A stretch of 6,801 nucleotides of DNA from IMG/VR virus record IMGVR_UViG_2547132272_000022. The stretch is one strand, 5' to 3'. This stretch comes from a virus. Lineage: Duplodnaviria; Heunggongvirae; Uroviricota; Caudoviricetes. Each line of letters starts with the position of its first letter. The first letter of the stretch is position 1. Made by a program: the position numbers and the translations under genes. The notes below the pieces were generated by a model. That model was not told the DNA's origin. It made no database searches and saw only the letters and a list, made by a program, of their open reading frames with translations. Of this stretch, positions 1,286 through 6,801 are shown one piece after another.

Positions 1286-1534
1286 ATGCGCACACAGGTT
1301 GTATTGCAAAAATGGGGTAACAGCATTGCCCTTCGACTAACGGGAAACCTTAAAACCGTTCCGGGTTTTTCAGTGGGTGATATCGTCAACGTTGAAATTA
1401 GTGAAAAGGGGCTTTTTGTAGAAAAGCCTGCACGCCGTCGCCTGAGTGAAGCCGAATTACTCGCCGGGATAACGCCAGTTACAGCGCACGCGGACGAAAT
1501 TGCCACCCCATTCAATGAGGAGGTTGATTACTGA
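1286..1534 (+). CDS. MazE/PemI/ChpS-family antitoxin (AbrB/SpoVT-type fold)
   Basis: 82-aa ORF with RBS caggag 8 nt upstream of the ATG. The N-terminal KWGNS...R signature and overall pattern resemble MazE and ChpS. Its TGA stop overlaps the start of the next gene (TGATG at 1532..1536). Confidence 0.85.
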   Translation: MRTQVVLQKWGNSIALRLTGNLKTVPGFSVGDIVNVEISEKGLFVEKPARRRLSEAELLAGITPVTAHADEIATPFNEEVDY

Positions 1535-1878
1535 TGTTTGTACCTAAGCGTGGTGATATTTGCTGGCTGGATTTTGAGCCGCAGAAAGGAAAAGAGATCG
1601 GAAAGTATCGCCCGGCACTCATACTATCCCATGAGCAATATAACCGACTCACCGGGCTTGTCATATGCTGCCCCATAAGTACGAGCATACGAAATGCTCC
1701 CACAGAAGTTCCGGTAACAAATCTGGACGCCCCCAGCGTGGTAGCAACCACACTCATTCAAACCCTTGACTGGCGTCAGCGGAAAGCGCGCTTAATCACA
1801 GAGGCAGAAGATGGGGTATTTAATGATGTGCTTGAAAGAGTCATTACCCTGATTGGTGGAGAGCATCTGCTTAAGTAA
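1534..1878 (+). CDS. MazF/PemK/ChpB-family toxin (putative sequence-specific endoribonuclease)
   Basis: 114-aa ORF with RBS gaggagg 9 nt upstream. The translation aligns by eye with E. coli MazF (P.RGDI.W.DF.P.KG.E....RPALILS...YN..TG...CP.ST), and start/stop coupling with the upstream antitoxin is typical of type II TA operons. Confidence 0.88.
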   Translation: MFVPKRGDICWLDFEPQKGKEIGKYRPALILSHEQYNRLTGLVICCPISTSIRNAPTEVPVTNLDAPSVVATTLIQTLDWRQRKARLITEAEDGVFNDVLERVITLIGGEHLLK

Positions 1879-1921: not shown

Positions 1922-3193
1922 CTATTCTTTCCAGTCAATCCCATCCAGTAAGCACCCTGCCTCATATTGCCCCACCACCCAGTCAAGGTTACAGGACTCA
2001 TAGAACGCGAGGCGATTATACTGAGGCTCGTTTTTTACCAGGCCACGAACGGAACCACGCTGCCAGTACAGACACAGATTGGCAAGAGGTGTGATCAATA
2101 CAGCATTGTCCGGGAAAAATGGAACGGTTACAGCCGGGAGATTCCCCAGAACGGGATTTTTAATGATTTCCTCGTTAAGCAAAATTTCCTGATTCATCTG
2201 CGATGGATCAAGACGGTTTATCAAAGGCCATTGTTTACGGACCAGCGTATTGTGACTGCATACGGCCACAATGCCTTCCTGCCACTGTTCATCAATCATG
2301 GATTGCCAGGCATCCAGAACGAGCGCATCTATCGTATGGTGTGTACCGCGTGTATTACTTTTCGGTGATGAAACAGAAAGGCCGCTGATAACCCTTCCCG
2401 CCGCTTCATTTCGAAACTTCTGCAACCAGCCCACGCCGCAATCGTCACGCCCCGGATATGTTTTAGGGTCAGATTCGGCGGCATAATGTGTGCCGTTAAA
2501 ACCAATCTGAATTAAATCCAGCCATTTCCGGCGTTCAAAAGCGGCCCGCGCACTTCCTTCAAGGCCGTTTGCGGATGCGTGAGCATCGGCATTGTCGTAG
2601 CTCAACGCAAAATCAAAATTAACCTGCTCGCAGCGGTAGCCCCTTGAAACCAGTGAATGCGCCTGTAGTGGCGAACGGCGCTCGTGAGGTGGCGATGTAC
2701 GTGCCAACGGCCCCGAAGCGTCTACCAGCACAACCCGACCTGATATATCCGTAACAGGCACGGGCGTTATTTCAGCAAGGAAATTTGCCTGCCATCCACT
2801 GGCAAGCGTTGCACTCTGGCGGGGAACGGGTTCAACTTCTGACGAATAGCGCGCAGTGTCACCGGAAAAGTGCAAATCCTTCGGATGTTTTCCGGTTATC
2901 GACTCGATAGCGCAATTGAAAACCATCTGAGCCTGTTGATTTCGTTGTGATACAACAGAATCAGCAGTGCAATTATAACGCTCAATGCCGTCGTTATTAC
3001 CCCCACCGCTTGCAGTATGCAGGGTGTGAAGCTCAAGCTCACGCTCCAGTTTTTGATATTCATTGTCCAGCGCGCGACGCGTCTCATCGCTTATGCTTGC
3101 TGTGTTTGCTTTCAGGCGATTCCGGGACATTAATCCCCTGAGTCGGCTCACTATATCAGCGCCGTGCAAATGTGGAGTATTCAGACCGCCCAT
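1922..3193 (-). CDS. Hypothetical protein B (423 aa), distal gene of the two-gene operon; function unknown
   Basis: Long uninterrupted minus-strand ORF. The ATG at 3191..3193 overlaps the TAA stop of gene A by one base (TAATG), a classic translational-coupling arrangement. I recognise no Walker, nuclease, HEPN, reverse-transcriptase or nucleotidyltransferase motif by eye. An in-frame ATG further upstream (3334) would add 47 aa but overlaps gene A by 142 nt. Confidence 0.7.
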   Translation of the reverse strand: MGGLNTPHLHGADIVSRLRGLMSRNRLKANTASISDETRRALDNEYQKLERELELHTLHTASGGGNNDGIERYNCTADSVVSQRNQQAQMVFNCAIESITGKHPKDLHFSGDTARYSSEVEPVPRQSATLASGWQANFLAEITPVPVTDISGRVVLVDASGPLARTSPPHERRSPLQAHSLVSRGYRCEQVNFDFALSYDNADAHASANGLEGSARAAFERRKWLDLIQIGFNGTHYAAESDPKTYPGRDDCGVGWLQKFRNEAAGRVISGLSVSSPKSNTRGTHHTIDALVLDAWQSMIDEQWQEGIVAVCSHNTLVRKQWPLINRLDPSQMNQEILLNEEIIKNPVLGNLPAVTVPFFPDNAVLITPLANLCLYWQRGSVRGLVKNEPQYNRLAFYESCNLDWVVGQYEAGCLLDGIDWKE

Positions 3194-3903
3194 TACTGCC
3201 ACCCCCGGCAGAGTTCTCTGCCCTCCGCAAGGTCGCGCATTTTTTCTGGATTCTGTCGCGCCGCGCTCCATTGTACAGGTGAAGGGGCGTTCCTGATTGC
3301 GCGGCTTACCGAATCCGGGAGTTTCTCCGGGCAATAACGCAGCGGGCTGGAGGTGTCGCTTTCGGTATCGTTAATCCGGCCGCGAATCATCCCGACACTT
3401 TCAGCAGTATCTGTCGCTTTCAGTGTTTCGCATATTTTCTTTTCTGCGTTATACAGCGGCTGGCCAAGCAGCTCACATAAACCACGAATCAATAACAGAG
3501 CAGGGGTCAGCTCGTTAATCAGTTCGGGAAGTGCTTTTGCAAATATCTCTGCCCGCAACTTATTATCAATGCTTTCGTAAGCACAACCAGCCTCTGCCGC
3601 GTTATAACGACACTCCAGTAGCCTGATGCGCGCCTCATCATGCAGCACCCGCAGACGCTCAAGATTTTCTCGCGCCACACCCGCCTGAATGGATAATTTC
3701 GCGGAGGCTTCCGTTTTTACGCCCAGCGCAGACAGGATTGAGTTCTGCCAGTCACGATCGAGAGATTCCAGCTCCCCTTTCGTCTGTTCGATAGTTGCTT
3801 CCAGATTGGTGATTAATGATTCCTGTTCACTGAGTTTTGCCATGGCTGCATCAAACTGTGCTTTACATACCTGATGTTCGGCGCTTGCCTGAGTTATATC
3901 CAT
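3193..3903 (-). CDS. Hypothetical protein A (236 aa), predicted helical and coiled-coil-rich N-terminal half; function unknown
   Basis: Minus-strand ORF with RBS caggag 6 nt upstream of the ATG at 3901..3903. The N-terminal ~100 residues are rich in E, L, A, K and R in a heptad-like pattern. No catalytic motif recognised. Confidence 0.72.
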   Translation of the reverse strand: MDITQASAEHQVCKAQFDAAMAKLSEQESLITNLEATIEQTKGELESLDRDWQNSILSALGVKTEASAKLSIQAGVARENLERLRVLHDEARIRLLECRYNAAEAGCAYESIDNKLRAEIFAKALPELINELTPALLLIRGLCELLGQPLYNAEKKICETLKATDTAESVGMIRGRINDTESDTSSPLRYCPEKLPDSVSRAIRNAPSPVQWSAARQNPEKMRDLAEGRELCRGWQ

Positions 3904-4535: not shown

Positions 4536-4897
4536 ATCACGCTCCTCTTACTGGTGTGAAATTTAACCTATTATATCTTCTGCCGCCCCCTCTGGCTGTA
4601 TCAAATAAACCCGCAGCAGTCGCCGCGTATTACGCACGGGCGCGCCGTTCCCATGCTCACTCGTCACATTCCCCGTATCAGTTCTCTCTTGCCGTAAGAA
4701 CGGCTCTGGCTGGCGATAAAACTAACCCGGTCGGGGCATTCCCGCAGCCTTTAGCGAAAATGTAATTTACCCCCTGAAACGCGTGCTGTTCCCCCGTCAC
4801 CTGCGCGCGAAAAACTCACCGTTTTTTGTGCACGCACGAAATCGCCCTCCGGGCGCGCCAGTACTGGGCCGGATGGGCAAAAAGTTACTCTAAAAAA

Positions 4898-4924
4898 TTG
4901 TGCAAATTTGTGCACTTTTGTGCA
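4898..4924. repeat. Three direct TTGTGCA repeats at an exact 10-bp period
   Basis: TTGTGCA at 4898..4904, 4908..4914 and 4918..4924, with a fourth TTGTGCAC at 4826..4833. The 10-bp spacing puts the copies on one helical face, as expected for cooperative protein binding. Confidence 0.6.
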
Positions 4925-5151
4925 GATGAACAATAGCGTCAAAAAGAGTGCTTTTGAGAGATTTTTTATGGCAACTGCGCCGCGTGTATTACGTTTTTTA
5001 CCATCCCCGCCGCGCATGTACATACTTCATTTTTCTGCCAAACAACAGGGCAACTCCCCGTGACTGACAGCCCCCAAAAAATCAATGATTGATGTTGCAT
5101 TTTTGTTAGAGGTCAGGCCAGTTGTTTTGGGGCTCTGCCTCATAATCCGGT

Positions 5152-5184
5152 GGGGGGTGCGCAAAGCGGTTACAACGGTTACAA
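5152..5184. repeat. Left arm of a 33-bp perfect inverted repeat
   Basis: ggggggtgcgcaaagcggttacaacggttacaa (5152..5184) is the exact reverse complement of 5433..5465. Confidence 0.9.
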
Positions 5185-5432
5185 CAGTCAAAAACACCAC
5201 TTAACAACATGATTTTAATGGATATTGTTTGTAACCGCTTTGCGGTTACACTGCGGTTACAACGGTTACAGGTTTAAAAAAGCACTTTATTATCAATCAA
5301 TTAAAAACTTAACCTGTAACCGCCTGTAACCTAACAAAACGGTTACATGTAACCGCGTTGTAACCGCTTTTGTAACTCATCCGACCAGTTATAATATATT
5401 GATATATAATACAAAAATAAGTAATTCTAAAT

Positions 5433-5468
5433 TTGTAACCGTTGTAACCGCTTTGCGCACCCCCCCCC
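5433..5468. repeat. Right arm of the 33-bp perfect inverted repeat, ending in a C9 homopolymer
   Basis: ttgtaaccgttgtaaccgctttgcgcac followed by nine C (5460..5468). The left arm has only six G, so the homopolymer is 3 nt longer on this side. Confidence 0.9.
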
Positions 5469-5722: not shown

Positions 5723-6724
5723 TTACTCTGCTGGTTCTTTTTGTTCAGTGAATGCTATGTTAGCTATCGGGTTAAACCTCATGGCATCTGCCAGATAGTC
5801 GGGAGAAAAATGCGCATAAGTCATCGTTTGCTGAATAGTGGCATGGCCCAGAATCCGTTGCAGGGTAACGATGTTTCCCCCGTTCATCATGAAATGCGTG
5901 GCGAACGTATGACGCATCACATGAGTCGCCTGCCCTTTTGGCAAATCAGGCTTCACCTCCTGGAGGATCTCGCGAAACCGGAGATAATCGACCTCGTACA
6001 GCGGCCCAGTTCGGCAGGTTTTAATCAGCGAGAGCACAGCATCAGACACCGGAACCGAACGGGACTTCCCGTTCTTGGTGTTGAAGAACGTCACGCGATT
6101 ACCGACGATATGCTCCCCGCGTAATTCCGTCGCCTCACCCCACCGCGCCCCCGTGGAGAGACACAGAATGGCGACACGACGCGCATCACCTTCGAGTCGC
6201 TCAAGAAGCCGCTCAATCTCATCATCAGAAAGAAAGGCCATCTCTGTATTCTGAATTTTTAGCTTACGTATACTGCGCACGGGGTTCGGGTTGTGAAAGA
6301 CCCCTGCTTCAATCAACACCGTGAACATGGTAGACAGAACGCATAAGTCACGATTAATACTGGACGGCATTAATCCGGCCTGTAATTTCTCTGACCGATA
6401 CTCAAGCATAAATTTTCGCGTCATCTGGTTGGCGCGCGGATCTCCCATTTCACGAATCACTTTCTCCAGCCGGATCCTGTAGGTATCGCCGTAAGCCTGA
6501 TTACACCCGTCAAGCATCCACCATGTATCAAGCAACTCTGATAATCGCCGCCGATCAGCAGGTTTAGCTAGCCATGGGTTATTATGGAAATTCTGCAAAA
6601 CATATTGTTCGAACTTCTCTGCACTTCCTTTCCTGGTAAAAATTTTACGTATCCGTTTGCCGTATGTCCCTTGCGGCCTGATATCTAGCAACCATCTTCC
6701 ATCATCCATCTTTCTAATCGACAT
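5723..6724 (-). CDS. int: Tyrosine recombinase / phage integrase, P2 Int-like
   Basis: The translation aligns along its length with phage P2 integrase as I recall it (MSIRKMDDGRWLLDIRPQGTYGKRIR vs P2 MAIKKLDDGRYEVDIRPTGRNGKRIR; ILCLSTGARWGEA; catalytic HxxR in VMRHTFATHF and the Tyr region LQRILGHATIQQTMTYAHF). I place the start at ATG 6722..6724, which has RBS aaggagag 9 nt upstream and matches the P2 Int N-terminus. The track ORF extends 12 codons further to 6760 without an RBS. Confidence 0.93.
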   Translation of the reverse strand: MSIRKMDDGRWLLDIRPQGTYGKRIRKIFTRKGSAEKFEQYVLQNFHNNPWLAKPADRRRLSELLDTWWMLDGCNQAYGDTYRIRLEKVIREMGDPRANQMTRKFMLEYRSEKLQAGLMPSSINRDLCVLSTMFTVLIEAGVFHNPNPVRSIRKLKIQNTEMAFLSDDEIERLLERLEGDARRVAILCLSTGARWGEATELRGEHIVGNRVTFFNTKNGKSRSVPVSDAVLSLIKTCRTGPLYEVDYLRFREILQEVKPDLPKGQATHVMRHTFATHFMMNGGNIVTLQRILGHATIQQTMTYAHFSPDYLADAMRFNPIANIAFTEQKEPAE

Positions 6725-6801
6725 ACTTAAGATCTCTCCTTGTAACTGAATATCCGGCATTTCAGCACTTCCGGCTCTCTGGCCTCGGCTACTCCTTTTC
6801 C

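Follow-up and report, generated by a model that had tools for sequence, protein, structure and literature searches.

What is the function of a non-coding, repeat-rich segment next to an integrase gene in a phage satellite of Escherichia coli? This question is raised by a stretch of 6,801 nucleotides from the IMG/VR virus record IMGVR_UViG_2547132272_000022, which was analyzed at its full length and is called the window in the following. The window is identical to E. coli TUM1881, in which a P4-like satellite island of about 13 kb is located between hpt and gcd. A preliminary description had pointed to a dense array of GGTTAC hexamers between inverted repeats and had left three readings side by side: arm-type and accessory binding sites belonging to the attachment site of the neighboring integrase, an origin with hexamer iterons and A+T-rich unwinding elements, or an inserted element resembling a miniature inverted-repeat transposable element (MITE). 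Here, we compared the array and its neighboring genes with those of related loci and modeled the protein most closely associated with it. The evidence favors the second reading, as the array is linked to a gene for an 889-aa Toprim primase-helicase, its iterons switch in concert, and the protein model matches the fold of known origin-binding helicases. According to these sequence comparisons and the model, the 320-bp unit is very probably the vegetative replication origin (oriV) of the satellite, read by the C-terminal domain of the satellite's own primase-helicase.

Structure of the array

The unit is bounded by inverted-repeat arms of 36 nt (5149-5184 and 5433-5468) that are 97% complementary. 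Direct reading of the sequence confirmed the 33-bp perfect inverted repeat described before (5152-5184 vs 5433-5465) within these arms. GGTTAC or its complement GTAACC occurs 17 times in the window, compared to 2.56 ± 1.55 times in 200 dinucleotide shuffles (maximum 8). Of these hexamers, 13 fall in 5168-5449 in both orientations, which reproduces the earlier count; the chance expectation of about 0.12 per 317 bp also bears out the earlier statement that a hexamer should be met well under once in about 300 bp. In the first half of the array the hexamers start at 5168+, 5177+, 5231-, 5244+, 5255+, and 5264+, and in the second half at 5316-, 5326-, 5341+, 5349-, 5360-, 5435-, and 5444-. They form pairs or triplets with a spacing of 9-13 bp, and the two halves are mostly inward-facing.

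The recurring units, the internal palindrome, and the A+T-rich stretches mentioned in the preliminary description were all located. GGTTACAACGGTTACA units are present at 5168-5183 and 5255-5270, with an inverted copy at 5434-5449, and the palindrome is perfect and holds head-to-head hexamers. The A+T-rich spacers that set the hexamer clusters apart number three: 5190-5220 and 5270-5300 reach 77-80% A+T, while 5390-5430 reaches 83-93% in 30-bp windows, the stretch 5385-5432 peaking at 93%. Matches to the IHF consensus number three in the window compared to 0.38 expected, and two of the three lie inside the array. The segment had been called free of open reading frames (ORFs), and this is correct insofar as RefSeq annotates no gene there and only mechanical ORFs of 48-57 aa overlap it. 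In an Rfam search of the window nothing reached the gathering score, and a promoter and terminator scan of the window was uninformative, with weak promoter-like matches inside the array. The elements of the unit are as follows.

5149..5468, no strand: whole origin-like unit with 13 GGTTAC iterons, three A+T-rich spacers, and two IHF-consensus sites; same plan in 14 related loci oriented on the Toprim gene
5149..5184, plus strand: terminal arm distal to the Toprim gene; G-run, TGCGCAAAGC, and iteron pair 5168/5177, 9 bp apart
5231..5269, no strand: inner iteron cluster distal to the Toprim gene; 5231(-), 5244(+), 5255(+), 5264(+), spacing 9-13 bp; positions conserved in the alignment of related arrays
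5291..5303, plus strand: central IHF-consensus match TATCAATCAATTA near the dyad center; IHF binding predicted from the consensus
5316..5377, no strand: inner iteron cluster on the Toprim side; 5316(-), 5326(-), 5341(+), 5349(-), 5360(-), degenerate GTAACT at 5372-5377, and palindrome CGGTTACATGTAACCG at 5340-5355
5385..5432, no strand: stretch of 83-93% A+T, located toward the Toprim gene in the loci read; candidate DNA-unwinding element
5392..5404, minus strand: second IHF-consensus match TATCAATATATTA within the most A+T-rich stretch
5433..5468, minus strand: terminal arm on the Toprim side; iteron pair 5435/5444, then GCTTTGCGCA and a C-run

Association of the array with the Toprim gene

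For comparison, relatives were gathered from IMG/VR, GTDB genomes, and public assemblies, and the loci were labelled L001 onward. The array had been described as lying next to an integrase gene. It does adjoin one; however, this gene encodes an internal P2-type enzyme and not the terminal integrase of the island, and the primase-helicase gene lies immediately beyond it. The window contains the following parts of these two genes.

5723..6724, minus strand: internal P2-type tyrosine integrase, annotated with 333 aa, ORF running to 6760; Pfam Int_N and Phage_integrase
6727..6801, minus strand: last 24 codons of the gene for the 889-aa Toprim primase-helicase, the proposed initiator, including the PEVLKCRIF strand with residue 877

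Among 5426 complete E. coli genomes the array is present in 66, and the Toprim gene (at least 80% coverage) likewise in 66; both were present in each of the E. coli loci that were fetched and read. The array is chromosomal and single-copy in each of these genomes, its best match being one collinear piece and in no case inverted; an apparent second match place per genome record results from the two arms of the inverted repeat being matched to one another. The match extends over 80% or more of the query in 65 of the 66 genomes, the array thus being intact, unsplit, and internal to the island. The plasmid and phage collections gave no match to the array.

The distance between array and Toprim gene falls into two classes. 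In nine loci (L005, L031, L040, L099, L120, L162, L163, L164, and L166) the array starts 170-390 bp past the Toprim stop codon, and wherever a 1-kb integrase gene intervenes it starts 1278-1340 bp past it. In the window this distance is about 1.28 kb because the 1-kb P2-type integrase gene sits between the two. The position of the integrase gene is variable. L005 has it on the opposite flank of the array. L040, L120, and L164, which are phage-like loci, have it 2-6 kb away from the array beyond the Toprim gene, and five loci have an array without an integrase within 4-5 kb (L031, L099, L162, L163, and L166). Among the latter are the Salmonella and Pectobacterium satellites L162, L166, and L163, which keep the array without an internal integrase. 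The locus of Comamonas halotolerans (L031) encodes a Toprim protein of 41% identity directly followed by an array of 11 GGTTAC hexamers with the same G-run and C-run ends, and no integrase homologue is found within 5 kb. Apart from the Toprim gene, the neighbors of the array-carrying loci are wholly different. Hence, the array belongs with the Toprim primase-helicase gene and not with the integrase gene, the association being exclusive and positional across distant hosts.

These data bear on several other explanations of the locus. The array could be an attachment site with arm-type or accessory sites, or another recombination target, e.g. for multimer resolution, of the adjacent P2-type integrase. 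In its order of ogr, array, and int, the locus is reminiscent of ogr - attP - int in phage P2, and the integrase, whose sequence shows all catalytic residues (R, K, HxxR, H, Y), is encoded directly beside the array in every satellite having it. Against these similarities stand the arrays without a nearby integrase gene or with one 2-6 kb away, and the unsplit array inside an island that carries a terminal P4-type integrase next to gcd. Furthermore, the related phage ESSI2_ev239 has six GTCCACA repeats downstream of int, in its real attP region, whereas the P2 arm-type motif (TGTGGACA/GTCCACA) was not found in the window. Together with the integrase comparison given below, this makes an attachment site very unlikely.

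A second explanation is a fimS-type invertible switch flipped by the neighboring tyrosine recombinase. Indeed, a 317-bp segment within long inverted repeats next to such a gene is the classic layout, and the weak promoter-like matches lie inside the segment. However, megablast and blastn returned a single collinear piece and no inverted copy in 66 of 66 E. coli genomes, although assemblies could miss a rare inversion within a culture. The same unit flanked by inverted repeats also exists without a recombinase nearby, and in the loci read the A+T-rich stretch is always on the side of the Toprim gene. Since no inverted copy was seen, an invertible switch is unsupported and extremely unlikely.

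Equally improbable is a MITE-like insertion or an operator array for a small regulator of the island, either Ogr/Delta-like or ribbon-helix-helix-like, for which the terminal inverted repeats and the regulatory appearance of an intergenic region next to an Ogr-like gene could be cited. The array is found once per genome at a constant place relative to the Toprim gene, the plasmid and phage collections contain no match, and the genes around it, with the exception of the Toprim gene, change completely from locus to locus. The single-copy, collinear, chromosomal matches in the 66 E. coli genomes and their absence from plasmids and phages remove the MITE reading of the preliminary description. The genome search proposed there was meant to show whether the unit occurs independently of the integrase as a MITE would; the unit does occur without the integrase, in one copy per genome beside the Toprim gene.

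Concerted iteron changes and co-varying residues

In some of the loci the iterons have changed in concert. The hexamers are GGTCAC in STEC313 (L004), in L015, and independently in L120, with 9, 10, and 7 copies, respectively, and a few degenerated sites. The spacers of the GGTCAC arrays of L004 and L015 still align with those of GGTTAC arrays. In L163 and L164 the hexamers are CGTTAC or TGTTAC. In an alignment of the integrases zero columns separate the GGTCAC loci from the GGTTAC loci. Integrases of 93-95% identity go with different iterons (L001 vs L004: 95%), whereas integrases of only 52-59% identity share one iteron type (L001 vs L002: 59%). In the Toprim protein, 23 columns separate L004 and L015 from the GGTTAC loci, and 17 of the 23 are located within residues 693-877. 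After L120 and further loci had been added, positions 821 and 877 remained discriminating. All GGTCAC loci have T at position 877, where V, I, Q, or S is found in the remaining loci. R879, which lies on the same strand as residue 877, is found in both CGTTAC lineages. These patterns suggest that the iteron switch tracks residues of the winged-helix-like C-terminal region of the primase-helicase and not of the integrase. With no integrase residue following the change from GGTTAC to GGTCAC, and with arrays occurring without an integrase, the attachment-site reading of the preliminary description is not supported.

A peculiar arrangement is present in a P2-like prophage of Providencia (L164, 6790-7560), where three tandem origin-like arrays follow one Toprim gene. 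One of them is a partial GGTTAC array, another a complete CGTTAC array, and the remaining one is a GGTTAC array that is almost the same as the array of L099. The arrangement resembles the footprint of an origin-cassette exchange.

The 889-aa primase-helicase

RefSeq names the 889-aa protein 'toprim domain-containing protein' and the 333-aa protein 'phage integrase'. A Pfam search with the 889-aa protein gave a Toprim domain and a weak match to DUF5906 (D5-like P-loop) only. Its sequence relatives are primases of the P2-like phages phiCTX, Dobby, RSY1, and ESSI2_ev239, and the Toprim family comprises 855 relatives at E ≤ 1e-10 among the candidates scored. The AlphaFold model, built from 39 homologues, has a mean pLDDT (predicted local distance difference test) of 85.8. 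Its C-terminus is modeled as a helical bundle followed by a winged-helix-like beta-alpha-alpha-beta-beta unit comprising residues 813-883. In a Foldseek search against the PDB the best matches were the SCCmec Cch helicase (5dgk, E 3e-14) and the SaPIbov1 Rep protein (8tch, 5e-11), further top matches being SaPI5 PriRep5 and Rep1 with dsDNA (7ola, 7pds); DnaG matches the Toprim part. The match to the Rep/Cch helicase fold was obtained with the protein model as a whole. A sequence search of the initiator against the PDB gave no match, and the relationship is therefore visible at the fold level only. We propose from the model that the protein consists of a zinc ribbon, a DnaG-type Toprim primase, an initiator-helicase similar to Cch and SaPI Rep, and a C-terminal winged-helix-like domain.

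Comparison with known replication origins

Rep proteins of Staphylococcus aureus pathogenicity islands (SaPIs) are self-loading helicases whose C-terminal winged-helix domain binds penta- or hexanucleotide iterons (PMC9371898). The SaPI origin consists of 6-12 iterons directly downstream of rep, with an A+T-rich region between them and at least two iterons per side in opposite orientation (PMC9371898). The array matches this description in almost every point. As in SaPI and other phage-inducible chromosomal islands (PICI; SaPI1, SaPIbov1, SaPI5) and in Cch of SCCmec, the modeled protein shares the Rep/Cch helicase fold with a C-terminal winged-helix-like domain, and as in PriRep5, primase and helicase are fused in one protein. 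Hexanucleotide iterons are located just downstream of the rep gene and flank spacers of up to 93% A+T, the pairs at the two ends are inverted with respect to each other, and the host element is a phage satellite. There are differences as well. With 13 iterons the array is slightly above the published 6-12, and it has long terminal inverted repeats ending in G- and C-runs as well as a positionally conserved central IHF-consensus site. The primase is of the DnaG/Toprim type with a zinc ribbon, and the protein has no detectable sequence similarity to the solved structures. In addition, the host is Gram-negative, the satellite is one of P2-like helpers, and an integrase gene separates rep from ori.

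The satellite phage P4 offers a second comparison. In the P4 record, crr comprises 300 bp directly after the alpha primase gene and contains 10 octamers (TGTTCACC/GGTGAACA) in both orientations, with pairs 9 bp apart, and a second octamer cluster is present at ori, 4.5 kb from crr. The protein studied here has the same domain order as P4 alpha (zinc ribbon, Toprim, P-loop helicase, C-terminal DNA-binding region), and the island shares with P4 the satellite lifestyle, the P4-type integrase, and the Icd-like and Ogr/Delta-like genes. BLASTP against P4 alpha gave only short collinear patches (Walker A, E 2e-4; Toprim, E 0.004). Unlike in P4, the iteron is GGTTAC(A) and not GGTGAACA, and the type I octamer TGTTCACC is absent from the window. 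While P4 has ori and crr, the latter with two direct 120-bp repeats, there is one dyad-symmetric element here. The weak similarity to alpha, the absent octamer, and the single cluster suggest that the element works like P4 ori/crr but stands outside that family. The protein was also considered as a P4 alpha homologue; this was rejected, the protein being a primase of the phiCTX/RSY1/ESSI2 type, and P4 was not among the 40 phage records matched by tblastn.

P4 needs ori and crr separately, and the array occupies the position equivalent to crr behind a primase gene. It could accordingly be a crr-like replication enhancer bound by the same primase-helicase, with the true start elsewhere in the island. 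However, there is only one hexamer cluster in the 24-kb locus L001, and elsewhere in the 13-kb island only isolated single hexamers occur, leaving no candidate for a second GGTTAC cluster. The array itself contains the stretch of 83-93% A+T and the IHF-consensus sites, and the structurally related SaPI Rep proteins use a single origin at the equivalent position. We consider a crr-like enhancer improbable, albeit somewhat less so than the recombination-based explanations discussed above.

Theta-plasmid origins that use IHF, such as R6K gamma ori and that of pSC101, are likewise compact and are built from iteron clusters together with an IHF site and an A+T-rich element for unwinding. Their initiators are small Rep proteins that recruit host DnaB and DnaG, whereas the initiator proposed here has its own helicase and primase.

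Conserved architecture and proposed course of initiation

For the comparison of architecture, 14 arrays were each oriented on the Toprim gene. The shared plan begins at the distal end with a G-run, a (T)CGGAAA-like spacer, an iteron pair, an A+T-rich stretch, and an inner cluster with a head-to-head pair. Toward the Toprim gene it continues with an IHF-consensus match, an oppositely oriented inner cluster, a spacer, an inverted iteron pair, and a C-run. G-run, (T)CGGAAA-like spacer, and iteron pair were also found in L031, L036, L099, L120, L163, L164, and L166. In 9 of the 14 arrays an IHF-consensus match is located at offset 181-192; a second one is equally placed in L001, L002, and L004, and L120 has a similar match. 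The A+T-rich stretch keeps the same polarity relative to the Toprim gene in the loci read. The outer ends (5149-5160 and 5457-5468) are conserved runs of 6-9 G (or C), even in Comamonas.

From this architecture and the protein model, initiation at the proposed oriV could proceed as follows. Upon derepression of the satellite, the 889-aa primase-helicase would be made, and its C-terminal domains would bind the GGTTAC hexamers, whose pairs are spaced by 9-11 bp, close to one turn of the helix, and whose orientation is reversed between the halves of the unit. IHF would bend the center of the unit, and the gene-proximal stretch of 83-93% A+T would melt. Two helicase rings would then load themselves, the Toprim domain would prime, and host polymerase would extend the primers; initiation would be bidirectional.

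Several observations weigh against an origin of this kind or limit the case for it. P2-like (pro)phages with Toprim proteins of 37-51% identity (L006, L007, L037, L038, and L165) have no GGTNAC cluster within 4-6 kb, and the link between gene and array is thus not universal in the family. In satellites having the internal integrase, its gene always abuts the array, on either side, and the integrase might play a secondary part at this locus. L031 carries R879 despite its GGTTAC iterons. The GGTCAC class comprises two independent lineages only, as does the CGTTAC class; with so few independent switches, the covariation at positions 877, 821, and 879 is suggestive only. The proposed course of initiation gives no role to the conserved G-run and C-run ends of the array. 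Finally, the whole case is comparative and structural, drawn from sequences and a predicted model.

Two extensions of the origin reading are speculative and rather unlikely. One is a portable GGTNAC origin 'code', which may be read by a short C-terminal strand (PEV-L/I-KCW, positions 877 and 879) and could be re-tuned by single residue changes and passed between P2-like helpers and satellites; the tandem arrays of L164, with their two iteron types, would then record such an exchange. The other is a P2-type integrase acting at or next to the origin, which may serve, e.g., multimer resolution or the coupling of replication to recombination with the helper.

GGTNAC arrays beside unrelated replication genes

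In IMG/VR, a search by pattern alone revealed GGT(T/A)AC arrays that sit at the 3' ends of unrelated genes for primases, primpols, or helicases, which lends the origin reading independent support. The genes preceding these arrays encode the following proteins or domains.

L046 and L095: NrS-1-like primpol and DUF5906 upstream of the array
L078: DUF3854 and DUF5906
L064: Toprim_3
L139: D5_N and Pox_D5
L158: Prim-Pol and AAA_25
L151: VapE
L138: 1094-aa protein whose C-terminus matches the hidden Markov model (HMM) of the C-terminal region studied here

When the HMM of the C-terminal 200 aa was compared with these unrelated primase-helicases, only L138 matched (E 7e-7), and no common motif was visible by eye among them. 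These comparisons thus do not show a DNA-binding domain common to the families. Dense GGTTAC, GGTAAC, or GGTCAC arrays are common in viral and metagenomic contigs (metagenome loci L278, L292, L341, and others), metagenomic GGTCAC arrays having up to 27 copies. Pattern scans of IMG/VR and metagenomes for GGTCAC arrays returned many arrays and zero new Toprim-linked ones; L206 proved to be the same contig as L015, and a looser pattern scan gave mostly chance single matches.

Neighboring genes of the satellite island

Starting from gcd, the island contains the P4-type integrase gene, a gene for a helix-turn-helix regulator, an Icd-like gene, several small ORFs, and the gene of the 889-aa Toprim protein. 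Toward hpt it continues with the 333-aa integrase gene, the array, an Ogr/Delta-like gene, the gene for a coiled-coil protein of 236 aa, a P2-family capsid gene, and a MazEF-like pair. The island thus has two tyrosine integrases, the internal P2-type one (Int_N) and a P4-type one (Arm-DNA-bind_3) at the gcd end; their coordinates in L001 are 12624-13625 and 19521-20732. The internal integrase shares 47-57% identity with integrases of the P2-like (pro)phages L006 and L038, and in the majority of the satellites its gene separates rep from ori. A function as a resolvase or an action on the helper phage is conceivable; probably it is a passenger, encoded by a gene cassette that landed between rep and ori.

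Between the array and the Ogr-like gene, three close copies of TTGTGCA(C) (GTGCAAATTTGTGCACTTTTGTGCAG) are located at 4897-4925, and similar TGCAC-rich repeats are equivalently placed in L036 (about 9350-9560). They may be an operator or promoter region. At 4783-4801, on the minus strand, a sequence weakly resembles the P2/P4 cohesive end (14/19, by eye), and L036 has a closer match (GGCGAGGCGGGGGAAC) about 600 bp past its array. This sequence may be the cos site of the satellite; a search with the P2 cos sequence gave no match at up to three mismatches.

The region 1922-3903 on the minus strand comprises a P2-family major capsid gene (annotated 423 aa) and, upstream of it, the gene of the 236-aa coiled-coil protein; P4 has psu and sid there. 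The same gene pair is found in the Yersinia and Salmonella relatives L160 and L166, and the satellite may build its own capsid or remodel it. At the end of the island that faces hpt (1286-1878, plus strand), an AbrB/MazE-like antitoxin and a PemK/MazF toxin are encoded. P4-like satellites have their variable anti-phage 'hotspot' at this position, and the relatives L004, L005, L160, L163, and L166 have Hok/Gef, YoeB/YefM, or ParE-like pairs in this hotspot.

Conclusions

The literature was searched for GGTTAC iterons and for origins in P4-like satellites, and no description of either was found. To the extent of this search, the earlier remark on the lack of a known GGTTAC-binding protein remains valid. 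A Rep-proximal iteron origin is a familiar kind of element; here it would be found in a protein family for which the same search brought up no described origin. The oriV reading would thereby assign a function to an unannotated, highly structured 320-bp element present in about 1% of the complete E. coli genomes, for which annotation as the attachment site of the neighboring integrase would be tempting but wrong. The natural GGTTAC, GGTCAC, and CGTTAC variants, together with one or two co-varying residues, offer a ready system for studying how the specificity of initiator and origin evolves, and they bear on how satellites avoid or exploit cross-talk with the replication of their helpers. If the portable origin code is true, it would let satellites and P2-like helper phages share or escape each other's replication initiators.

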